Source: a virus
Length of the DNA stretch: 64,000 nt
UHGV virus genome: UHGV-0197549
Direction: 5' to 3' (one strand)
Shown: positions 6,951 through 62,142 of the stretch, piece by piece
Layout: every line of letters starts with the position of its first letter
Position numbering within the stretch: the stretch's first letter is position 1
The notes under the pieces: generated by a model
Told to the model about the DNA's origin: nothing
The model's database searches: none
Seen by the model: only the letters and a program-made list of their open reading frames with translations
Translations under genes and position numbers: made by a program

Positions 6951-7029
6951 GAAAACAGAAAATAAACTCTTTGTGCCTAATACTCCTATACTTGGAAAAA
7001 GCCTAACTAAACCGACCTTAACCTGAACT

Positions 7030-8268
7030 ATGAATATCAACGACCTTCAACTTGTTACCGGAGAAGCCAGGCCCGGCGAGGCGGCATCCATCCGGTTCTT
7101 CGGCAAGGTGACCGCCCAGTCCACGGCGCGGTTCAATGAAGAGTTCGAGTACCTCGAAACGGTCATCCGCCCGTCGCTTATCAGAGTGCTGATTAACAGC
7201 GAGGGCGGCTCCGTTTTGCACGGCATGACAACTTACGCGACCATCCAGAACTCCACCATAGACACCGAGTGTGTCATCGAGGGCATGGCGGCGAGCATGG
7301 GCTCGGTACTCTGGGCAGCCGGAAAACGCTCCCTGATGCGCGACTACTCCATCCTGATGATACACAATCCCTTCTTGCCGTCAGCGGAAGAAGGGGAAGC
7401 CTCGGAGCTTGTCAAAGCGTTCACCCGGCAGATTGAAACGATTTACCGCAAACGTTTTTCCCTGACTGCCGAACAAGTGCAAAGTATCATGGCGGGGGAA
7501 ACCGGGAAGGACGGTACCTACTTTGATGCATCACTGGCAGTCAGTGCCGGTATCATACCGGAAAAGAACATCCTGCACACCAGCCCCCAACTCTGTGAGA
7601 TGGTAAAGAACAGCATTTCGGGACTGGAAGATGCAGGCGATATACAGAATGTAATGAGCAAAATAACCGCAGAAGCCGGTAACCATCCTACTCCTGCACA
7701 ACAGAACATTAACCTGAATACTATGAACGAAGAAAGAACCATTCCTTTTGAACTGGGTGCGGTGGCGGCAAGCCTGGGCATCAAGGACAAATTCGAGGTA
7801 ACGGATGTCATGTCGCGTATCTCCGCGCTGATGAACGTGGAGGCGTCCCTTACCGAAGCCAACCGTAAACTGACGGACGCGCAGACAGTGATTGCCGGCA
7901 AGGACGCCAGCATCGGCAACCTGCAAAAAGACCTGGCCGAGACGGTAGCCAAACTGAGCGTATTTGAAAAGAAAGAGGCCGATGAAAAGAAAGCGCGTAT
8001 CGACAAGCTTGTCGAAGATGCCGTCACAGCGGGCAAGATTGAAAAAGAGAACAAGGAGCAATGGGTGGAAATGGCGGGCTCCAATTACGAACTGGCCGAA
8101 AAGACACTGGCATCCATCCCCGCCCGTGAGAAGATCACCCATGAGATTGCCACCGACCCGGACAATGTGCAGGCAGCCAGGACGGCAGCCAGGACGGCAG
8201 AAGAGAAGATGGCGGAAAAAGTGAACGCCGTTGTCGGTGAGAGCTTCGAGTTCAAGAAGATGTCCTGA
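7030..8268 (+). CDS. prohead protease (ClpP/S14-like) fused to a coiled-coil scaffolding domain
   Basis: The N-terminal half has GGSVLHGM..EGMAASMGSVLWAAGKRSLM..ILMIHNP, resembling the ClpP S14 active-site region. The C-terminal 200 aa are Ala/Glu/Lys-rich coiled coil, typical of scaffold. It lies immediately upstream of the major capsid gene. Confidence 0.6.
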   Translation: MNINDLQLVTGEARPGEAASIRFFGKVTAQSTARFNEEFEYLETVIRPSLIRVLINSEGGSVLHGMTTYATIQNSTIDTECVIEGMAASMGSVLWAAGKRSLMRDYSILMIHNPFLPSAEEGEASELVKAFTRQIETIYRKRFSLTAEQVQSIMAGETGKDGTYFDASLAVSAGIIPEKNILHTSPQLCEMVKNSISGLEDAGDIQNVMSKITAEAGNHPTPAQQNINLNTMNEERTIPFELGAVAASLGIKDKFEVTDVMSRISALMNVEASLTEANRKLTDAQTVIAGKDASIGNLQKDLAETVAKLSVFEKKEADEKKARIDKLVEDAVTAGKIEKENKEQWVEMAGSNYELAEKTLASIPAREKITHEIATDPDNVQAARTAARTAEEKMAEKVNAVVGESFEFKKMS

Positions 8269-8310
8269 CAACCCATTATCCCATTAACCTAAACCTTAAA
8301 ACTATAAAAC

Positions 8311-9375
8311 ATGGCAGAAGCAGCTAATACGGTTTCCTTTCTCCAGAACGGCTATAACGGTGAAGTCCTTGAAGACTTGCTCACTTATACCGCGCAGGGA
8401 AACGACACCTTTAAAGAAGGACTGATTCATATTAAGTCAGGCATCCAGCACAAATACACCTTGCCGGCCATCCGTCTGGGCGATATCATCCAGGACAACG
8501 TTCCCACCCCCACCAGCAGCCACGGTGCCAAAGGCGAAAACGGAGAAAACGAGTACGAATTTACAGAGCGCTACCTGATTCCGCAGGATTTCATGGTGTA
8601 CCTCGAATTTAACCCCCGCGACTACGAGAAGTATTGGAAATTCGCACAACCCGAAGGCAACCTCGTCTTCCGTGAGCTCGACCCGAAGATTCAGGCCACG
8701 ATGTTGCGTTTGCTAATGGACAAGAAAAATGAGTATATCGGCAATGCTATCTGGACCAGCGCCAAGGGAGGTTCAGCGGCAGCGGGGATTACATGTCCGG
8801 CAGATTCCATCATCATCGGCAGGAACAAGGAGAAGTACTTTGACGGAGTGGTCAAGCGCATCATCGACAACATCAACGCCACTGACAGGGAAACCATCGC
8901 GGGTGGTCAGTGTGTGCTTGCAGGCAATACCGAACTTCCGGACGGGGCAGCCGTGGAAAAGGCACTTTACGGTATGTGGAAGAAATGTCCCAAGCAAATC
9001 CGCAAGAAAGCCGGACTTACATTCGTAATGAATTTCGAGCAGTGGGACGCATACGACCAGTATGTCAGTGACAAGATGGTGAAGTACTCCGAAAATACGG
9101 AAATCAACCGCTACCGCTTCAAAGGAAAACGCATCCTTCCGCTGGTAGGCATCCCCGAGCATACGATTGTCCTAGGTGAATTTACCACCGGCATGGACTC
9201 TAACCTCTGGATGGGCGTGGATTACGCAAACGACACGGAAGTGCTGAAAGTGGACCGCCTGCAAAGCAACTCGGAGCTGTTCTTCTTCCAGATGCGTATG
9301 AAAATGGACGTGAATATCGTCCGTCCCGCTGAAATCGTGGTACACACCGCTTACAAGAAGGCACCCACCACCTGA
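8311..9375 (+). CDS. major capsid protein (HK97-fold, inferred)
   Basis: 354-aa ORF directly after the protease-scaffold gene. A strong hairpin terminator follows it. Confidence 0.5.
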   Translation: MAEAANTVSFLQNGYNGEVLEDLLTYTAQGNDTFKEGLIHIKSGIQHKYTLPAIRLGDIIQDNVPTPTSSHGAKGENGENEYEFTERYLIPQDFMVYLEFNPRDYEKYWKFAQPEGNLVFRELDPKIQATMLRLLMDKKNEYIGNAIWTSAKGGSAAAGITCPADSIIIGRNKEKYFDGVVKRIIDNINATDRETIAGGQCVLAGNTELPDGAAVEKALYGMWKKCPKQIRKKAGLTFVMNFEQWDAYDQYVSDKMVKYSENTEINRYRFKGKRILPLVGIPEHTIVLGEFTTGMDSNLWMGVDYANDTEVLKVDRLQSNSELFFFQMRMKMDVNIVRPAEIVVHTAYKKAPTT

Positions 9376-9395
9376 CAACCTTACTCTTAACTCTA

Positions 9396-9432
9396 TGGCA
9401 GGGGAATAGGAATGACCTGTTCCCCTTTTTTA
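9396..9432 (+). terminator. rho-independent terminator after capsid gene
   Basis: AGGGGAA...TTCCCCT 7-bp inverted repeat followed by TTTTTTAAAA. Confidence 0.4.
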
Positions 9433-9456
9433 AAACCTTAAACCTTACCCTTGACT

Positions 9457-9726
9457 ATGGCAAAACAAATCAAAACGGAAGGAGAACTTACCGCCGTACA
9501 GGAGCCGGAAGTAACCACTGCTGAAACCAAGACGGAAACCGTAACTAAAAACGAACCCAAAACCGAACCCAAACCGGAGGCATACGTACTTTCCGTATTG
9601 CAGGCGTTTCCGAATTATGAGCAACTGTATGTAGACAAACAGGGCGGCGTCTATGCCCCGGACACACCGAAGCACCTGCGCGAAATGGCCACCCTCTACA
9701 AGAATCCTTATTTCATCCAACCTTAA
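9457..9726 (+). CDS. hypothetical small protein (Thr/Glu/Pro-rich N-terminus)
   Basis: ORF between the capsid and tail genes (the track starts at TTG 9451; the ATG is at 9457). Confidence 0.3.
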   Translation: MAKQIKTEGELTAVQEPEVTTAETKTETVTKNEPKTEPKPEAYVLSVLQAFPNYEQLYVDKQGGVYAPDTPKHLREMATLYKNPYFIQP

Positions 9727-9745
9727 CCCTTAAATCTGAACATCC

Positions 9746-11086
9746 ATGTTAGGAAACGTATATATCAAGGACACGGACGGCAATATCTCTTACACGGGGG
9801 CAACCGGCAACGAGAAAGTTACAGGGTTGCTGTTTGACGTGTCCCTGCAACCGGAACTCTTTACTGCCGGTTACGGGAAAAATAACGAGAACAATGTCAA
9901 ACTCAACGACGTGCTTTATGTCACTAACCGTAAATCCGCCATCAAGGACTTCGGTATAATCCAGCGAGTGAAGGCCACCGAAGACGAAGAGAACAACGTG
10001 AACTTCTTCCACGGCATCCCGTACTACCATATCTCCGAGTTCTTCCGCTTGTCCGGCAACATCGACGGCAACGGCAGGCTGTACGTGATGTTCGCCGACT
10101 GTTCAGCCGGCTGGGATGCGGTGGATATCATGCAGCGTGCGGCAGGCGGTACTATCAACCAGCTTGGCATCTGGACGGAACAGCCGCAATGGAAGCTTAA
10201 CGGCGCCGAGGAAAAGTACAACCTGAACCTCGTCAAAGGTATCAATGACAAGGTGGTGGCTTTGGCAGAGCAGAACCAGCCGCTTTCCGTCATCCTGGCA
10301 GCCAACTGTTCCAACACCGGAGCCGATACGGCGGAAGGCCTGAAAGTGGACCTGAATAAAATCCCGACCGCTATCTGTGAATCCAGCCGTACATCGGTCG
10401 TTTTCGGGCAGGCACATTCGGAACTCGTGTCCACCATGCAGAAATACAATAAGAACCATACGCCCGTAGGAGTTCTCGGCGCGGCACTCGGCTGCCTGGC
10501 ACGCGCCAACGTACATGAGTCAATCGCCTGGGTGAAGCAGTTCAACCTCTTTAGTGACGACTTCCAGGCCATTGAGCTGGGCTTCGGTGACATCAACCAG
10601 ACGGCGCAGGAAGAGTTCATCAGTACGAACCTGTATGAATCACTGTCCCCCACACTGCTGGATGACCTGGACGAGAAAGGATACATCTTCCCGATCAAGT
10701 ATGCCGGGCTGGAGAACGGGATTTACCTCTCCAAAGACCAGACCTGTTCCACGGGTGATTACCGGACGATTGCCCGGAACCGTACCATCAACAAGTCCCG
10801 CCGTGCCGTCCGTGCCGCCCTGCTGCCTTATGTGAACGCTCCCCTGATGGTGAATCCCGCTACCGGCTTGCTTGCACCTTCCAAGATTACCGCCTTCAGG
10901 ACATTGATTTCCGACGTGCTTGCCAAGATGCAGACCTCACAGGAGATTTCCGGCTATGCGGTAACGATTGACGCCAACCAGAACGTACTTCTCAATGACA
11001 CGTTGCGTATTGGATATGTGCTGGTCCCCGTGGGCGTAGCTACTAAAATCTATGTGGAAGAAGGCTTGTCCCTGACGACGAAATAA
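9746..11086 (+). CDS. putative tail sheath protein
   Basis: 446-aa ORF immediately upstream of a 147-aa tube-sized ORF and chaperone/TMP genes. Size and order are typical of contractile tails. No motif-level proof. Confidence 0.4.
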   Translation: MLGNVYIKDTDGNISYTGATGNEKVTGLLFDVSLQPELFTAGYGKNNENNVKLNDVLYVTNRKSAIKDFGIIQRVKATEDEENNVNFFHGIPYYHISEFFRLSGNIDGNGRLYVMFADCSAGWDAVDIMQRAAGGTINQLGIWTEQPQWKLNGAEEKYNLNLVKGINDKVVALAEQNQPLSVILAANCSNTGADTAEGLKVDLNKIPTAICESSRTSVVFGQAHSELVSTMQKYNKNHTPVGVLGAALGCLARANVHESIAWVKQFNLFSDDFQAIELGFGDINQTAQEEFISTNLYESLSPTLLDDLDEKGYIFPIKYAGLENGIYLSKDQTCSTGDYRTIARNRTINKSRRAVRAALLPYVNAPLMVNPATGLLAPSKITAFRTLISDVLAKMQTSQEISGYAVTIDANQNVLLNDTLRIGYVLVPVGVATKIYVEEGLSLTTK

Positions 11087-47638: not shown

Positions 47639-48679
47639 ATGGCGCTGTCCTTAAACGATACGGAGTTTCTCATCCGGGAGATTACCAAAGAACTGGATGC
47701 AAAGGCGGACGGTGCGGGAAAAAACCTGATTGCCCGGTGCCCCCGTTGCGGGAAAGAAGGAAAGTACGGTGTCTATGTAGGCAAAGAGACACAGCGGAAG
47801 AAGCCGTTCATGTCGCACTGTTTCAGTTGCGGATGTTCGACCTACACGCTGGAAGCATTGCTGGACTTTATAGGCAGGCCGGATTTGATGGTGGCTCCTA
47901 CGGCTGACATTGACGCCCGGCTGGATACGAACCTGCTGTTCCCGCTGGAGGAAGGTGAAGAGATAGACGACGCGCTGGGCGTGGTGGAACTGCCGGACTT
48001 TTACCGGAGATGCTTTACCCACCCTTATCTGAAATCCCGTGGGTTCACCTTCGATGACTACGAGTATTTTCCGGTGGGAACGACAAGGGGGCTCAACTTC
48101 CGCTACGATGATTATGTCGTCTTTCCCATTATTGACGAGGGTGATGTGGTGGGATACGTCTCACGCCACACTTGGAACAAGGACGAGATAGACAGGCATA
48201 ACAGCCGGGTAAGGCGCAAGGGCGGATACCGGATACTGCGTTTCAGGAACTCTACGGAGAACGACTTTGTAAAGCTGCTCTATAACTATGATGCGGTAAT
48301 TGAAGGCGTTACGGATACGGTAATCATCACGGAGGGGATATTCGACGTGATAGCATTAACAAGAAAACTGGAAATCTATGACAATAAACATGTGGCCGCG
48401 GTCGCCACCTTCGGAAAGAAGATATCCCGCACGCAGATTTACAAGCTGCAATGCAAAGGGGTAAAGACCGTAATACTGGGTTACGATGGAGACGCTGTTG
48501 AAGCCATAAAGAAGACAGCCGGTGAATTGAACGCTTACTTCCGGGTATTTATTGCCGACATACCGGATGCAGGAAAAGATTGGGAGGACCTCGGGGATGA
48601 AGAGATATACGGCATATTCTCTTACCGGTTGAGGACTCCCGCCGAGTACCGACTTTTAAAAGTTCAGGAATTAAAATGA
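47639..48679 (+). CDS. DnaG-like primase (zinc-binding + TOPRIM)
   Basis: 346 aa. CPRCGKEG...HCFSCGC zinc ribbon. The TOPRIM-like VIITEGIFDVIAL (E-G motif) and a later YDGD acidic motif. Confidence 0.6.
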   Translation: MALSLNDTEFLIREITKELDAKADGAGKNLIARCPRCGKEGKYGVYVGKETQRKKPFMSHCFSCGCSTYTLEALLDFIGRPDLMVAPTADIDARLDTNLLFPLEEGEEIDDALGVVELPDFYRRCFTHPYLKSRGFTFDDYEYFPVGTTRGLNFRYDDYVVFPIIDEGDVVGYVSRHTWNKDEIDRHNSRVRRKGGYRILRFRNSTENDFVKLLYNYDAVIEGVTDTVIITEGIFDVIALTRKLEIYDNKHVAAVATFGKKISRTQIYKLQCKGVKTVILGYDGDAVEAIKKTAGELNAYFRVFIADIPDAGKDWEDLGDEEIYGIFSYRLRTPAEYRLLKVQELK

Positions 48680-50397
48680 AAGAACTAATCAAATGGCTGG
48701 AAGCCAACAAAATCAAGTATCGACAGATAGACAATGAAGTAGTGGAGATGGAAGGATTGGGAAAGCTCTATGTGGCTGACCTGACGGAGGTGAGATCGGT
48801 GTTCCGGGTGACCGGTGAAGACATCCGGTTCAACCTGATGGAGAGCCCGGAGGTACTGGTTGCCGAGGGGATATTCCATGTGGCGTTCCCGTTCGGGGAC
48901 AACTGGTATTATTATAACCTGACCGAAGGGTTCCGGTTTAATATCCTCAAGTATGCGGGAGTACGGCAGCCTTGTAAAATGCAGGTACCTTTCGCGAATC
49001 TGGGCGTGCATACACCTTTTGAGTTGCTCAACGGTAGCGGAAGCATTGCCGACTGGGTACGGAAAGCGAAGTATCTGGGGCATACGGCACTGGGTATCTG
49101 TGATAAAAACACAATGGCGGCCACGCTGAATCTACAGAAGGAATGTGCGGCACAGGGAATGAAGCATGTATTCGGATATACGCTGGAAATGGAATACGAA
49201 GGGGAAAAGATAGGGATGAAAGTCTATGCGCAGACACAGCGGGGAATGAGGAACCTGTTGCGCATCCAGAAGGAAATCATGGTGGACTCGGACAACCGGA
49301 CGCTATCGCTTCAAGGACTGCTCACCCACGGGGAAGGCAATGTGCTGGTGCTGGGAAAACTCGCTTCCTACTGGATGAAGAAGAACCCGCATATCCTGGG
49401 AGCGATGGGGATTGCATTTGAAAAGGTGTTCTATCAGGTGGATTTGAGCGAATACAAGGCTGAACGTATCGACGTGGAAGTCCTGAAAGCTACCAAGTTC
49501 TTTTTTGATAATTTCTATGACCTACAGACCGGCTCATTTCAGATCGAACCCATTCTGCTTTGTGACACGTATTATCTGGACAAGGACGATGCACGCAACA
49601 AGATTATCCTCAATAAGATAGCTACCGGGGCGGCCCACCGGCAAAGTGACGACCAGTATTTCAAGGATATAGACGAACACTACGCACTGTTTACTTCTCT
49701 CTTTGACGGGAATAAGTGGGAGCTGGACAGCCTGTTCAGGGGGATGTGCGCCCATACGGTAGAAATTGCCGAGGGGGCGGTTGCCCGTTATGAGACGGAC
49801 AGGAACTTCATGCCGCAGTACGATATGACTGACAAGGAAAAACAGAGGTACGGTAACAGGCACCGGATGTTCCTTGAGTTGCTGGAGGAAGGATTCAGAA
49901 AGCTGGTTCCCGCCGGACAGGAAGATGAGTATCGCAAACGGCTGGACTACGAGGTGTATATCCTTGAATCCACCAATAATGTGGACTACATTCTGAATCA
50001 GTATGATACGGTGAACTGGGCACGGGAGAACGGTATTCTTGTGGGCTGTGGCCGTGGTTCGGCGGGCGGTTCACTGGTACTCTACCTGCTGGGTATCACA
50101 CTCATTGACCCGATTAAATACGATTTGATTTTCGAGCGTTTCCTGCTGCCTGAACGTGCGGGGCTTTATCCGGATGAGGTGACGATCATTGTTGGCGGAC
50201 TGGAATCCACAAAGATCGTGCATGTCACCTTAGCCAATGGCAAAGAGTATGTCTTTGACAAGGACGCCAAGTTCCGGGTGATGCGGGAAGGACGCAGCAT
50301 GATAGTCTATGCCGACGAGTTGAAGCTGGGCGATGACATCATCTTTGATAACAGGGATTTGGTATGGACACTTAATGAGACGGTTTATGGTTGTTAA
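48676..50397 (+). CDS. dnaE: DNA polymerase III alpha (DnaE) N-terminal fragment: PHP domain plus start of palm, ending in a Hint-like tail
   Basis: 573 aa. PHP motif LGVHTPFELLNGSGSI...GHTALGICDKNTMAA. The conserved GCGRGSAGGSLVLYLLGITLIDP...FERFLLPER block. The last ~79 aa (LYPDEVTIIVGG...YADELKLGDDII...) are not DnaE sequence and resemble the intein N-terminal A/B blocks. Confidence 0.75.
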   Translation: MKELIKWLEANKIKYRQIDNEVVEMEGLGKLYVADLTEVRSVFRVTGEDIRFNLMESPEVLVAEGIFHVAFPFGDNWYYYNLTEGFRFNILKYAGVRQPCKMQVPFANLGVHTPFELLNGSGSIADWVRKAKYLGHTALGICDKNTMAATLNLQKECAAQGMKHVFGYTLEMEYEGEKIGMKVYAQTQRGMRNLLRIQKEIMVDSDNRTLSLQGLLTHGEGNVLVLGKLASYWMKKNPHILGAMGIAFEKVFYQVDLSEYKAERIDVEVLKATKFFFDNFYDLQTGSFQIEPILLCDTYYLDKDDARNKIILNKIATGAAHRQSDDQYFKDIDEHYALFTSLFDGNKWELDSLFRGMCAHTVEIAEGAVARYETDRNFMPQYDMTDKEKQRYGNRHRMFLELLEEGFRKLVPAGQEDEYRKRLDYEVYILESTNNVDYILNQYDTVNWARENGILVGCGRGSAGGSLVLYLLGITLIDPIKYDLIFERFLLPERAGLYPDEVTIIVGGLESTKIVHVTLANGKEYVFDKDAKFRVMREGRSMIVYADELKLGDDIIFDNRDLVWTLNETVYGC

Positions 50398-52615
50398 GAG
50401 TGTGGAATTTAAACAGACACAGATACCGGTTCAGGCTTTGGATTGCCTGACCGGTAACGGGTTCAGACAAGGAGACGGCGGAAGTCTACCGGATATTGAT
50501 ACCGACTTCGCTTCGAACAGGCGTCAGGAAGTAAAGGAATACCTGGAGCGTCGTTATAATATGAACGGAAAACAGCGTGTCTTCTCTGCCGGGACTTACT
50601 CGACAATGAAACTGAAAGCTGCAATAAAAGACGTGTGCAGGGTATATAAAGTCCCTGTCAGTTATGTGAATTATATTACCGCCATTTTCGAGGATGACAA
50701 CATGAGTTGGACAGACCTGTTCATGTTTGCGACAACCAATAAGAAAGTAAACAAGTTCGTACAGGATTACCCGCAGGTGATTGAGGACATACGGGGACTG
50801 ATGGGGCAACCGCGTTCGGCTTCCGTACATGCTTCGGCAATCATTGTTACACCGAACTCAAAGGACGGTGAGGATATGGAGTGCTTCGATTTTACTCCCA
50901 TCAAGAAGGTGGACGATATTCTGGTATCGGAACTGGACGGGTATTCCATTGATGAAACGGGATTGTTGAAGAATGACTGTTTGGGCATCAAGGAACTTGC
51001 CAAGATACAGTCGGTCATAGATGAAAGTAACCGTGTGTATAATGCAGGCATCTCTTTTGAAGGGCTCGTCCGCAGCGGACTGGATGATGAGAAAACCTAC
51101 CGGATACTCGCCAAAGGGTACACCCAGAACGTTTTCCAGTTCAGCTCCGCAGGAATGACCAAGTTCCTGATGGATATGCAACCGGACTGCATCAATGATT
51201 TGATTGCCGCCAATGCCTTGTATCGTCCGGCTACACTGGAATCGGGTTCTACTCAAAAGTATTTGGATTGTAAAAGAGGTGAAGTGGCTCCCGTATATCT
51301 GTGGGGAACTTATAATGCGCTAAAAGGTACGTACGGGCAATTAACATATCAGGAAGACCTGGCGCAAATGGCGAGGGAAATAGGTGGCTTTTCATTGGGA
51401 GAAGGTGTAAATCTCGTTAAGTATATATCAAAAAAGAAAGTCGAAAAAATTCATGCAATGAGGGATAAGTTTATGTCGGGAGCTCACGAAAAGGGATGCC
51501 CGAAAGAAGACGCAGACCTCATTTGGGATATGATTGAGGCGGGCGGTTCCTATATTTTTAACAAATCGCACGCAACGGCTTATGCCATCACATCGTATGT
51601 AGGTGCCTGGCTGAAAGCCAATTACCCGACTGCCTTCTACACCATCGCCCTGCAATGGGCGGATGACAAGGAACTCCCGCTTATCATGTCGGAAATGGAA
51701 GAATGCAGTTCTGCCAAGGTGGTGCCGCCCGATATTAACACCTCAGCCGAAAAGTTCTTCACGGATTACCGGACGAATGAAATCTTCTGGTCGCTGGGTA
51801 AGATAAAGATACTGGGAACCAAAGCGGTGCAATACATCATTGACGAGCGCACCAAAGGCGGTCCGTTTAAATCAATCGAGAACTTTATACACCGTATATT
51901 CAAATACAAGCTGAAAAAGTACGAATACTGGGATGATGCGGATAATGAGCAGGAGGCCGTTAGGGTTCCCGTCAATGCACGTCACGTAAAGAACCTGATT
52001 CTTGCCGGTTGCTTCGATAAGGTAAGCAATATCAGTGCCGTTGTGGAAAGGTATTCGATACTGGATAAGGCGGCTACGGAACTGGGATTCAAGATTCCCA
52101 CCGGTGACTATCCCGACCACCTGATTAACCAGCATTACTTCTGGAGTATGCAGCAGATCGAGGTCTGTGGCATCGGGCGGATTGACTACAAGCGGATATA
52201 TGATAACTCCTATTGCCGCCACCAGTTCAAAGGGCGGGCATCCTATTCTACCGTACATAACGCGCTCCTGTCCGGAAGCGAAGGAAAGAAGGTCGCCCTT
52301 TGCGCGACTGTTACGGAAATGGAGGAAATCTCCTACAAGGACAAAAAGACGGGAGAAAGGAAGCACCTCTGCAAACTGCATCTCCAACAGAACAACGACC
52401 TGATAAAGCTCGTATGCTGGAATGACTTCTACATAGAGAATAAAACGGAACTCCAGGATATAAAAGGTAAGATTGTCATCGTATCGGCAATCGTCAAGTA
52501 CAATGACTACAGCGGAGGCAACAGCCTGAATACCTACAAGACTTCCCGGCTATTCACACTTAACCAATCATCAGAAAATCAAATAAACCAAGAAGATGGC
52601 AGCACCAAAAAATGA
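50387..52615 (+). CDS. dnaE: DNA polymerase III alpha (DnaE) C-terminal fragment, preceded by a ~33-aa Hint-C-like leader
   Basis: Its start ATG at 50387 overlaps the upstream stop (ATGGTTGTTAA). Residues from LPDIDTDFAS onward continue the DnaE alignment (PDFDIDF motif, then the palm/fingers region including the active-site-like ASVHASAIIV). The leader MVVKSVEFKQTQIPVQALDCLTGNGFRQGDGGS resembles a split-intein C half. Confidence 0.75.
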   Translation: MVVKSVEFKQTQIPVQALDCLTGNGFRQGDGGSLPDIDTDFASNRRQEVKEYLERRYNMNGKQRVFSAGTYSTMKLKAAIKDVCRVYKVPVSYVNYITAIFEDDNMSWTDLFMFATTNKKVNKFVQDYPQVIEDIRGLMGQPRSASVHASAIIVTPNSKDGEDMECFDFTPIKKVDDILVSELDGYSIDETGLLKNDCLGIKELAKIQSVIDESNRVYNAGISFEGLVRSGLDDEKTYRILAKGYTQNVFQFSSAGMTKFLMDMQPDCINDLIAANALYRPATLESGSTQKYLDCKRGEVAPVYLWGTYNALKGTYGQLTYQEDLAQMAREIGGFSLGEGVNLVKYISKKKVEKIHAMRDKFMSGAHEKGCPKEDADLIWDMIEAGGSYIFNKSHATAYAITSYVGAWLKANYPTAFYTIALQWADDKELPLIMSEMEECSSAKVVPPDINTSAEKFFTDYRTNEIFWSLGKIKILGTKAVQYIIDERTKGGPFKSIENFIHRIFKYKLKKYEYWDDADNEQEAVRVPVNARHVKNLILAGCFDKVSNISAVVERYSILDKAATELGFKIPTGDYPDHLINQHYFWSMQQIEVCGIGRIDYKRIYDNSYCRHQFKGRASYSTVHNALLSGSEGKKVALCATVTEMEEISYKDKKTGERKHLCKLHLQQNNDLIKLVCWNDFYIENKTELQDIKGKIVIVSAIVKYNDYSGGNSLNTYKTSRLFTLNQSSENQINQEDGSTKK

Positions 52616-59854: not shown

Positions 59855-60298
59855 ATGAAACTCACACTAAAACGAAAGTTCGTCGGTGACAAATACACCG
59901 TTGGAGATTTATTCATTGACGGTAAGTTCTTCTGCAACGCAATTGAGGATACAGTAAGAAAACTTCCGGTTATTTGTCCTTATACCTCCAAAGGACAATC
60001 CTGTAAATGCAAAGAGAAAATCTATGCGCAGACTGCCATTTCAGCTGGAACGTATAAAGTAACCATGGAATACAGTCCACGATTCAAACGCAAGTTGCCA
60101 CTCCTACATAATGTACCTCACTTCATTGGGATTCTCATTCATAGCGGTACCACGGAAATAGATTCAGCCGGCTGTTTAATTGTTGGGAATAACACCATCA
60201 AAGGCAAGGTAACTGAATCACGTGCCACCTCCGACAAGTTGAACGCCATTCTATCCAAAGAAAAACACATCACAATCGAAATAATCAATGGCAAGTAA
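59855..60298 (+). CDS. L,D-transpeptidase (YkuD)-like domain protein
   Basis: 147 aa. IHSGTTEIDSAGCLIV fits the YkuD H-G/S-T...S-x-G-C-(I/L/V) catalytic pattern. Confidence 0.35.
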   Translation: MKLTLKRKFVGDKYTVGDLFIDGKFFCNAIEDTVRKLPVICPYTSKGQSCKCKEKIYAQTAISAGTYKVTMEYSPRFKRKLPLLHNVPHFIGILIHSGTTEIDSAGCLIVGNNTIKGKVTESRATSDKLNAILSKEKHITIEIINGK

Positions 60299-60521
60299 AA
60301 AGTTGGTCCCACCTAAGAACCTTCACATCGACTTCAAGCCTTCACCTAAACAGTATGAACTCTGGAAACTACTCCAGCCTGAATGCCCGTTATGTGGAGG
60401 TGAAATCGAACAGAAGCTGATAGGCTACGACACCAATCACAACCCCAAGTATAAGCCGCACTGCATCAAGTGTGGCAATTCCAATATACCGCAACTCATT
60501 CTGGGTGGCGGTGCCGCTGGT
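60288..60521 (+). CDS. terL: terminase large subunit, exon 1 (N-terminus through first half of Walker A)
   Basis: The encoded PSPKQYELWKLL...Zn-ribbon...IPQLILGGGAAG ends inside the P-loop. Left alone, the ORF would run to a stop after 10 more non-homologous codons. The exon's last nucleotide is U (60521), pairing with G of the intron guide sequence. Confidence 0.7.
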
Positions 60522-60792
60522 AAACGATTCCTCTGCCAGCCTATGCAGTAATGCATAGAAAACAATCTCTTTAATTGCTGGAAACTCTGACCGCATAATG
60601 GCGAAGACAATCAGCAGCCAAGCCGGTTCAGCCGGAAGGTTCAACGGCTATCCGAAAGGAGTACGGTCAAGCGACCGGAAATGGGAGACTCCTTAGTCAG
60701 CTAAGGATGAAGATATAGTCTCATCTGCATGGAAACATGCAGCAGCGAAAGCGGTCACACCGTAGCGAAGTGTGGCGAAGAAATACCAAATG
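60522..60792 (+). ncRNA. group I self-splicing intron (ORF-less, ~271 nt) in terL
   Basis: IGS GCCAGC (60535-60540) pairs with exon GCUGGU with U-G at the splice site. P element AATTGCTGGAAA (60573-60584). Q element AATCAGCAGCCAAGCC (60609-60624), covarying with P. R-like GGAGACT (60684-60690). P8 hairpin CCTTAG-tcag-CTAAGG (60691-60706). S element AAGATATAGTC (60710-60720). P9 CTGCATG-GAAA-CATGCAG with GNRA loop (60725-60742). Terminal G at 60792. Confidence 0.7.
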
Positions 60793-62142
60793 GGTGGAAA
60801 ATCGTATTTGGCAAGTGTTTGGCTTGTGAGTAGTTGTATTAGATTTCCGGATGTGCGTGCAATAGTGGCGAGAAAGACGTTGAAATCTTTAAAGGAAAGT
60901 ACCTGGAATACAATCCGTATGATTATTAAGGGCTGGGGGCTCGTTGAAGATGTGAACTATCATATTAACAGCGTAGCCGGAACTCTTCGGTTTTGGAATG
61001 ATTCAGTAATTCTGATGCTTGATTTAGCCGATTTACCCTCGGACCCAAATTTCGAGCGTTTTGGTTCAATGGAAGCAACGATTGCGGCATGTGATGAGGT
61101 TTCGGAAGTTAGTCAGAAAGCAATTGAAGTATTGTTTTCTCGTTTACGATGGAAGACACACGAGACATTCAAAGTTTCTAAAATGCTCCTTACAACCAAT
61201 CCGACAACCAACTGGGTAAGAACCCGATTCGTACAAGACGAAAACGGAGACAAGACAGTTACACGTGAAGGTGAGTTTTATGTTCCCTTCAGTGTATTCG
61301 ACAATCCCGACATCGCCTTCCGCCAAACCTACGAAGCCGCTCTAAACAAGATCAGCGACCAGGCAACGAAAGAGCGACTACTTTACGGTAACTGGGACTT
61401 TGTAGAGGCAAACGACATGGCGCTCTACAATCAGTTCGACGGGACCAGGCATTTGATTACCGGACTGAAAGAAAAGGTATATGACCCAACTAAGCCGCTG
61501 ATCGTTGTGTGGGACTTCAACGTTGCACCTTATATGTCTACCCTGTTAGTTCAGATTGACTACGACAAGAAGAAGGTATATATTATCGAAGAGATACTGG
61601 GAAAGGCAGAGGATAAAGAGAATAACACACCATCACTCGCCCGAAAAATCAAAAAGAAGATGTACCGTCAAAAACACATCGGAGGCTTGGATATAACAGG
61701 CGACCCAGCCGGACTCCAACGTTCAACCACCAACGAAGACGGCGTGAATAACTATACGATAATAAATGAGACGTTGGGCAAAGGGATACTGCGCCCAAAA
61801 ATCAAACTCCTGAAGAAGCAACCGCCACAGGCACCACGTTGTGAGTTTGTGAATGAAGTTTTCAAAGGTTACAACGGTTGGGAAATAATGATTGACCTGC
61901 GTTGCCGGAAACTTACACAGGACTTAATCTATCAGCTAAAGAACGAGGACGGAAGCAAAGGAAAGCCTAAAGTAACGGACTCTAAAACCGGAGTGAAGTA
62001 CGAAAAGTACGGTCACTTGTCAGATTGCCTTGATTATTTGCTTTGCTATTATCTTAGAGATGCGTGGTATAAGTTCAAGAGCGGTGACGATAGCGGCAGC
62101 ATCCTTTCTACAGCTACCATTTCAGAAGGATTTAACTACTAA
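60793..62142 (+). CDS. terL: terminase large subunit, exon 2 (rest of Walker A, ATPase and nuclease domains)
   Basis: Begins GGKSYLASVWLV...IVARKTLKSLKES, continuing the P-loop and the conserved post-Walker-A segment (compare SPP1-type GGRGSGKSTFIAMKIV...IVLRKVANTLRDS, from memory). Walker B-like ACDEVSEV and TTNP motifs follow. The ORF has no independent upstream extension (stops at 60694 and 60763). Confidence 0.7.
   Translation, partial: GGKSYLASVWLVSSCIRFPDVRAIVARKTLKSLKESTWNTIRMIIKGWGLVEDVNYHINSVAGTLRFWNDSVILMLDLADLPSDPNFERFGSMEATIAACDEVSEVSQKAIEVLFSRLRWKTHETFKVSKMLLTTNPTTNWVRTRFVQDENGDKTVTREGEFYVPFSVFDNPDIAFRQTYEAALNKISDQATKERLLYGNWDFVEANDMALYNQFDGTRHLITGLKEKVYDPTKPLIVVWDFNVAPYMSTLLVQIDYDKKKVYIIEEILGKAEDKENNTPSLARKIKKKMYRQKHIGGLDITGDPAGLQRSTTNEDGVNNYTIINETLGKGILRPKIKLLKKQPPQAPRCEFVNEVFKGYNGWEIMIDLRCRKLTQDLIYQLKNEDGSKGKPKVTDSKTGVKYEKYGHLSDCLDYLLCYYLRDAWYKFKSGDDSGSILSTATISEGFNY

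Follow-up and report, generated by a model that had tools for sequence, protein, structure and literature searches.

To our knowledge, natural split inteins are known solely as active trans-splicing elements. Split intein halves fold together before catalysis, and engineers use splicing-dead intein halves as high-affinity binding pairs. Searching the literature for natural inactive or domesticated split inteins, we have found just an intein pseudogene and the HO endonuclease; no dead split intein kept for assembly came to light. In the cyanobacterial split DnaE intein (Ssp/Npu), the alpha subunit of DNA polymerase III (Pol III alpha) is made from two genes, with an N half of ~100 aa and a C half of ~35 aa composing one Hint domain. 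The same layout is found in the dnaE locus described here, which belongs to the virus genome UHGV-0197549 and lies in a stretch of 64,000 nucleotides, called the window below. Its two DnaE proteins end and begin, respectively, with what is probably a domesticated, non-splicing split Hint domain, which would tether DnaE-N to DnaE-C without a covalent bond.

Another related arrangement is that of the fractured genes, phage-type replication genes, including three dnaE loci, which are broken at intein sites and have a free-standing homing endonuclease between the adjacent halves (Dassa et al. 2009, PMC2677866). The split inteins described in that work retain the five catalytic residues.

The break in dnaE

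Pol III alpha is encoded in the window by two open reading frames (ORFs), both on the + strand. ORF1 (DnaE-N, 573 aa, 48676..50397) contains the PHP domain, the first ~100 palm/NTPase positions and a 79-aa Hint-N-like tail, as indicated by Pfam and by the homologs. ORF2 (DnaE-C, 742 aa, 50387..52615) contains a Hint-C-like head followed by the remaining palm, the fingers, HhH and OB. Pfam hits over both ORFs were found for PHP (1.2e-12), DNA_pol3_alpha (7.9e-29 and 2.9e-28), the finger domain (1.5e-35), HHH_6 (3.6e-17) and, weakly, OB. The domains of a DnaE protein are therefore present in order, with the catalytic DxD preserved in PDIDTDF. Positions 4-100 of the DNA_pol3_alpha profile match ORF1 residues 400-496 and positions 97-260 match ORF2 residues 30-200. 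Since the profile is divided between both ORFs in this way, we consider them one Pol III alpha, whose polymerase domain is severed around profile positions 97-100.

The last conserved DnaE residues ahead of the insertion are FERFLLPER (50131..50157), recognized by the motif and by the unsplit homolog; the following Ala-Gly may be extein too (cf. RVGK in the contiguous homolog). On the other side, the active-site motif PDIDTDF (50489..50509), with the catalytic aspartates, which we take to be the equivalents of D401 and D403 of E. coli DnaE, comes right after the head. The contiguous homolog of Chryseobacterium phage MA9V-3 reads FERFLNEGRVGKSLPDIDND across the site, and since this reading is uninterrupted, the ~111 extra residues of the window represent an insertion at the break. 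As with inteins, the insertion is within a conserved motif of an essential protein, going from FERFLLPER(AG) to SLPDIDTDF, and is missing from homologs. The initial annotation, made from the sequence alone, had already placed the break between these two motifs, and the ORFs, the Pfam halves and the contiguous homolog confirm it. The +1 change of frame that it reported was also borne out, although the motifs are separated by 331 nt and not by ~320.

The 79 non-DnaE residues that it had noted at the end of ORF1 correspond to 50158..50394 (+ strand; AGLYPDEVTII...VYADELKLGDDIIFDNRDLVWTLNETVYGC), and are delimited as a Hint-N-like tail by structure prediction, intein matches and selection. Again as first described, ORF2 starts within the end of ORF1, the two codons sharing the 11-nt sequence ATGGTTGTTAA (50387..50397, +), which places ORF2 at +1 relative to ORF1. 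The ATG at 50387 is the start used by gene callers in the homologs (P0121 starts MVVKSVEF), and a longer ORF2 from the ATG at 50333 has no support from relatives. This start/stop overlap suggests translational coupling of ORF1 and ORF2. The Hint-C-like head (~32 aa, 50387..50482, +; MVVKSVEFKQTQIPVQALDCLTGNGFRQGDGG) ends in Gly-Gly, and was delimited by structure prediction and by hhalign to intein C halves. The Ser at the +1 position (50483..50485, +) is an extein residue, since it is also present in the insert-free homolog (SLPD), and in relatives it is not conserved as a nucleophile.

Intein likeness and absence of the splicing residues

A construct of 288 aa, with ORF1 486-573 fused to ORF2 1-200, was modeled with AlphaFold2 (AF2) from an unpaired multiple sequence alignment (A7) of exact database fragments. 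ORF1 residues 496-563 reached a predicted local distance difference test (pLDDT) score of 82-97 and ORF2 residues 2-30 a score of 96-97, forming long beta-hairpins, and from the single sequence no usable model was obtained (pLDDT 34.7). In the Foldseek comparison with the PDB, the top 11 matches were inteins or a bacterial intein-like (BIL) domain (E 1e-4 to 1.6e-3, probability 1.00), and the other good matches corresponded to Pol III alpha itself. The fold matches include structures of BIL domains and of the Hedgehog Hint, and in the predicted model tail and head combine into a Hint fold.

For sequence comparisons, 27 concatenated tail and head sequences from diverse relatives were aligned (alignment A1). 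Its profile recovered four PDB sequences at E<=10, three of them inteins (KlbA, 0.22; PI-PkoII, 0.69; the Pab PolC intein, 1.5), with alignments spanning block B and the next ELKxGD strand. Aligned by hhalign with six real inteins, one of them that of locus L014, A1 gave an E value of 1.4e-4 and kept the same order as the inteins from block B to the end of the C half. Pfam Intein_splicing matched 8 of the 27 members at E<=1 (best 0.0016; P0200, 0.0021), all under the gathering score, and the window sequence scored 12.6-13.5 bits for a cutoff of 35.8. The similarity to Hint/intein profiles that the initial annotation had proposed to look for was found, but it stays below membership in the curated Intein_splicing and Hint profiles.

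The residue-level observations made at first in the window (no Cys/Ser at the first position, DKDA at the place of TxxH, GDGG-S for HN-C/S) hold, and the splicing residues are absent in 27/27 aligned relatives and in ~60 further heads and tails. At block A (AGLYPDEV in the window), an invariant Gly-Leu follows A, G, V or T (in one subgroup, C), and neither the window nor the family alignment has a conserved Cys, Ser or Thr nucleophile at the first intein position. DKDA (50257..50268, +) occupies the place of the block B TxxH, with Asp for Thr and Ala for His, and aligns with THDH of the KlbA intein (2jmz) and with T.DH in the hhalign intein profile. Among the 27 relatives this block is D-[KRL]-D-A (DKDA, DRDA or DLDA), where Asp and Ala are invariant. 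At block G, the head ends in QGDGG before SLPD; the relatives have GG, SG, GK, GR, HS or HA, and no head terminates in Asn, Gln or Asp. At +1, where the window has Ser, the family shows S, Q, T, V or A. The invariant head Asp is followed in the window by a Cys that might act as a class 3 nucleophile, but relatives have T, S, A or L there. Other A1 columns do not vary (G2, L3, D36, A37, Y51-A52-D53, F63-D64-N65, D98 and G104). Self-excision and ligation are predicted to be absent, and no known splicing route seems to fit these residues. As the defining catalytic features are lacking, we regard the module as derived from a Hint domain but not as an intein in function.

The ratio of nonsynonymous to synonymous substitution rates (dN/dS) was calculated by the Nei-Gojobori method in eight informative pairs, with 200 flanking extein codons on each side as control. 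It was 0.09-0.28 for tail plus head and 0.015-0.12 for the flanking extein; separately, values were 0.06-0.31 for the tail and 0.13-0.59 for the head. The Hint-like module is clearly constrained by purifying selection, yet it evolves faster than the polymerase core.

The junction in related phages

The ORF1 protein search returned 2138 matches, of which the best 120 clusters were examined, coming from Bacteroides, Alistipes and gut metagenomes. Nearly all of these are 566-581 aa long, with 98-100% coverage and identity down to 65%. ORF1 is carried at 55-98% identity by 80 IMG/VR loci on viral contigs of ~60-115 kb, and ORF2 is downstream in every locus of sufficient length. The layout of a split intein, with the N half ending one gene and the C half opening the next, is present in 64 loci, and the sizes of the tail (79 aa) and head (~32 aa) agree with those of split intein halves (N half ~80-120 aa, C half ~35 aa). 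Relative to ORF1, ORF2 is in frame 0, +1 or +2, with intergenic gaps from -11 nt to 2.5 kb and extein motifs 358, 359 or 399 nt, or 1.7-2.9 kb, apart.

In long-gap relatives, complete genes sit between the dnaE halves. The commonest encodes a PIF1/Dda-like helicase (L035 7908-9209 and many others), but NUMOD4+HNH_3 endonucleases (L013 7214-7761; L075 7702-8234; L087 682-1464; also L015), a GIY-YIG+NUMOD1 endonuclease besides the helicase (L047 ~9000-10240), a Bro-N protein (L003 7658-8227) and a crAss001_48-like protein (L068) were also found. Other genes, then, land in the gap between the two parts of dnaE. No endonuclease gene is found between the overlapping halves in the window, whereas relatives have them.

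The break was also observed in cultured phages. Bacteroides phage BS-TP1 (PQ571274.1, L081) has a homologous tail, a helicase gene and then a homologous head; in its record (7025-8653) DnaE-N is labelled 'DNA polymerase' and the DnaE-C gene is unannotated, being severed by the arbitrary linear start. Cellulophaga phage phiST and Tenacibaculum phage Larrie have two annotated Pol III alpha coding sequences with the same break site. In these Cbastvirus genomes (phiST gp044/gp045, L082 5081-5621; Larrie, L084 4159-4460), the remnants are reduced to a tail of 52 aa (MGEYQDRPNYKLTLEDGSIVELPEGTVVKIIRNKKEISIFIHDIIEGDDLIKY) and a head of ~18 aa (MKIINIEQNTAPKLVNGT), followed by LPDIDTDF, which suggests a progressive erosion of the Hint module. 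The nearest unsplit homologs found are in MA9V-3 and Bacteroides phage DAC16, and at least that of MA9V-3 is insert-free. Megablast of the region against the INPHARED phages gave no match, and the cultured relatives came from tblastn. The first 260 aa of ORF2 as query retrieved only fragmentary proteins of <=423 aa, with no full-length partners, and were informative on head diversity. When the 79-aa tail was used as a phmmer query on 1.84 billion representatives, only family members with a C-terminal tail were found, and no contiguous DnaE with the tail. Two long matches of this search, P0199 (Ig repeats) and P0229 (LVIVD repeats), were rejected as additive repeat artefacts, and the apparent in-frame fusion of tail and head in P0228 was discarded, since it is on a contig with many fragmented genes and probably full of errors.

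Interruptions of 0.8-1.1 kb within ORF2 of some relatives proved to be in-frame inteins and not introns. An HNH intein is inserted at FNK|SHATAYA in L009 (~8930-9770) and L050 (~10180-11040), with Cys1, TANHKHP and a ...TCN|S end, the C-terminus of the L009 copy reading IKVVSVEYLKDDEVYDVEM..HTFVT..IVTCN|S, a genuine one for comparison with the head. In L014 (~8680-9775), a LAGLIDADG intein at TYGQL|CYQEQ(L) has Cys1, TKDHK and ...VVHN|C. Both types are canonical and apparently active. Their occurrence elsewhere in the same gene indicates that the family has been exposed to inteins. Rfam searches of ten related loci at the gathering threshold found nothing.

Other relatives, unlike the window, have stop codons in the junction, in at least seven types. 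The head ORF stops at ...SLP, ...SLPD or ...SLPDV. After another 4-9 nt the codons of the catalytic DxD follow, in the same or a different frame according to the lineage, with inserts of 7-12 nt; the 35-aa Hint-C head is then a separate ORF ending in TAA or TGA. The junctions read ccg TAAGGTCG GAC in L003 and L007 (L003 8237-8360), ccg TGAGGCTG GAT in L034 (~9020-9135), ccg TAAGGAAGACTG GAT, in frame, in L008 (7755-7880), ccg TGAGCCG GAT in the L023 group (L023 7742-7870), GTC TGACG GTG GAC in L086 (1385-1510), GAC TAAGGGGC GTT in L087 (1445-1570) and GAC TAAAAGGGGC GTC in L088 (240-345). The exact L023 junction was found on 10 IMG/VR contigs from seven projects, and one relative with a stop insert shares 98% ORF1 identity with the window. 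The ORFs downstream of the inserts are intact (690-707 codons), with dN/dS of 0.04-0.11, also between two stop variants, and most types have no standard start codon ahead of the catalytic aspartates. The codon before resumption and the one before the stop are identical (CCG/CCG), synonymous (GUC/GUG) or equal at 2/3 positions. These junctions are compatible with a short ribosomal hop, with frameshifting, readthrough or a three-piece enzyme as alternatives; the hop was compared with that of the T4 gene 60/mobA cassette (bioRxiv 10.1101/2022.08.31.505936; 10.1101/2024.12.09.627546).

The codons of QGxGGSLP often form a GC-rich hairpin (GGGACCC-ggc-GGGTCCC in L003; CCGGGAGG-aag-CCTTCCGG in L029), which is weaker and bulged in the window (50455-50490). 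It is not specific to the stop-insert variants, as many fused ones fold alike, which is in part a consequence of the complementarity between Gly (GGN) and Leu-Pro (CTN CCN) codons. Further frame changes in DnaE-C were seen in L086 (~2300-2460, near YLWGNYE/KETFSLLVYQEQL, an A-rich run) and L087 (~2650-2760, near AYALTS/YVGAWLK), which may be assembly errors or additional recoding or splits.

Around dnaE, the window encodes a DnaB-like helicase, a Toprim primase and a DEDDh exonuclease. Apart from the split gene, the replication module is of the ordinary phage type, and it is otherwise intact, as previously described. The terL gene (60288-62142) has a group I intron at 60512-60742 (RF00028, 86 bits, E 1.6e-20), the single match of this family in the window. 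The ORF of the upstream exon ends in ...LILGGGAAGK and Terminase_3 resumes after 60772.

Proposed origin of the split and comparison with known systems

The initial annotation proposed that dnaE had once carried an intein, the halves of which are now catalytically dead and may do no more than hold the two polypeptides together. The Hint-fold model, the weak colinear similarity, the absence of catalytic residues, the purifying selection and the conserved split support this proposal, and we infer both an intein ancestry and a role of the halves in assembling an active polymerase. The ancestor was most likely an intein at the active-site position, either split or fractured by a homing endonuclease gene. 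The split could have been made by, or along with, a free-standing endonuclease, as in the 'fractured gene' route, and every splicing residue would have been lost later, leaving the last beta-strand (block G) degenerate. The result would be two polypeptides from adjacent coupled genes, broken in the palm active-site loop just before the catalytic DxD. Tail and head would fold into one Hint domain unable to excise itself, a permanent non-covalent clamp which would juxtapose FERFLLPER and SLPDIDTDF and rebuild the polymerase active site, while the start/stop overlap would favor equimolar and co-localized synthesis of both halves.

Some results weigh against this scenario. The sequence-profile matches are all under curated thresholds (12-18 bits in Pfam vs 35.8), the hhalign probability is just 52%, and Pfam DrmE_C, with 10 of the 27 members (best E 0.0019), is no rarer a match to the tail than Intein_splicing. 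DrmE_C, the C-terminal domain of DISARM DrmE, may hold a related beta-rich sub-domain. Because the model is a single fused chain built from an unpaired alignment, it makes no use of coevolution between the halves. Among the relatives, none was found to have an active intein precisely at the break, and for this reason the intein ancestry is argued from fold and architecture only. Finally, since the Cbastvirus remnants are far shorter, the split polymerase does not strictly depend on a complete Hint domain, and its fragments might join mainly by their own interface.

Following this last point, tail and head could be mere vestiges, or have another role such as replisome partner binding or regulation, the halves being held mainly by the palm-domain interface. 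The retention of the split in phiST and Larrie with such short remnants would agree with that, as would the dN/dS of the head, above that of the extein, and a structural likeness to inteins that is merely moderate. We consider it unlikely, given that tail and head are kept in all ~80 loci, with several invariant columns and dN/dS well under 1, and that AF2 folds both halves together with pLDDT >95. A split intein that still trans-splices the DnaE fragments by a non-canonical route, an alternative raised in the initial annotation, could count on the Ser at +1 in the window, on the Hint fold retained in the model and on the existence of inteins without Cys1 (classes 2 and 3). However, there is no position-1 nucleophile, no block B Thr/His and Gly-Gly instead of a terminal Asn, Gln or Asp, many relatives have Q, T, V or A at +1, and the Cys after the conserved head Asp is not maintained. 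These substitutions are fixed family-wide, which would be unexpected in an active enzyme that used another, conserved set of catalytic residues, and we consider splicing activity very improbable.

Programmed ribosomal frameshifting over the 11-nt overlap would give one full-length protein with an internal Hint-like segment, and the overlapping ORF2 at +1 speaks for it. Nevertheless, ATGGTTGTTAA contains no slippery motif, relatives use frame 0, +1 or +2, their spacers vary between an overlap and 57 nt, with stops in frame, and may also contain one or two complete genes, and the sole apparent fusion is that of the error-ridden P0228 contig; we give frameshifting even less credit than splicing activity. 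The least credible readings, which we practically dismiss, are a frameshift pseudogene, a sequencing error or a second group I intron within one dnaE ORF, also among the earlier alternatives. A group I intron does exist in the terL of the window, but Rfam gave no match within 49900-50800 with E values up to 10 allowed, and because ORF1 and ORF2 overlap, an intron would have no spacer to occupy. Purifying selection acts on both ORFs, and the same architecture recurs in hundreds of independent assemblies, so the split is neither a product of chance nor a sequencing error. Taken together, the variable frames, the whole genes between the halves and the cultured phages exclude error, pseudogene, general frameshift fusion and cis RNA splicing.

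A more ambitious version of the domesticated Hint domain can be offered only tentatively. The fully domesticated split intein might be a protein 'zipper' long fixed in a clade of Bacteroidota phages, from gut Bacteroides to marine Cbastvirus, with the junction still an endonuclease hot spot. In sister phages, the landing of such cassettes might have left the stop-containing inserts of 7-12 nt, which would be crossed by a ribosomal hop or other recoding, or else the enzyme might have three pieces, including a free 35-aa Hint-C peptide.

If the proposed clamp is real, inteins would have a third fate besides persistence and precise loss, that of a domain which permanently assembles the subunits of an essential enzyme, and a C-family replicative polymerase would work with its palm cut at the catalytic loop. 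These phages would then be a source of naturally diverged, orthogonal and non-reactive Hint-N/Hint-C pairs for protein engineering, and the junctions of relatives may hold new recoding signals. For annotation, such genes now bear the label 'PHP domain-containing protein', the second being entered as another polymerase fragment or, as in BS-TP1, not annotated.

Regarding known systems, the Ssp/Npu site is next to the FNKSH motif and its genes are far apart, whereas the window site is before the catalytic DxD and its genes are adjacent and overlapping. The cyanobacterial intein keeps Cys1, TxxH, the terminal Asn and Cys+1 and trans-splices; the module of the window has lost all of them, and its DnaE product should therefore remain as two chains. 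Fractured genes have a free-standing homing endonuclease gene between the halves, and relatives of the window have a NUMOD4-HNH or GIY-YIG gene in precisely this place, but fractured genes are catalytically competent, in contrast to the dead Hint halves of the window, which has no endonuclease gene. In the yeast HO endonuclease, BIL domains and Hedgehog Hint, as apparently in the window, the Hint fold outlives canonical splicing. These are single chains with some chemistry (cleavage, cholesterol transfer) or DNA binding, while in the window there are two proteins and no chemistry is predicted.

Close parallels are phiST gp044/gp045, Larrie and BS-TP1, where the break is also after FERFL...R and before LPDIDTDF, with full-size halves in BS-TP1. 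The GenBank records of phiST and Larrie list 'DNA polymerase III alpha subunit' twice, and those of all three phages make no mention of an intein-like module. DnaE in 'Gratiaviridae' and phiST was mentioned by Benler et al. 2021 (PMC8008677), with the split unremarked. In the T4 topoisomerase 39/60 with mobA, the split was made by a mobile endonuclease cassette, and the junction has a short untranslated insert with a stop, similar to the stop inserts in relatives of the window. There is no Hint module in 39/60 and no coding gap in the window, but in both an essential replication enzyme is split, and in T4 the separate subunits are functional.

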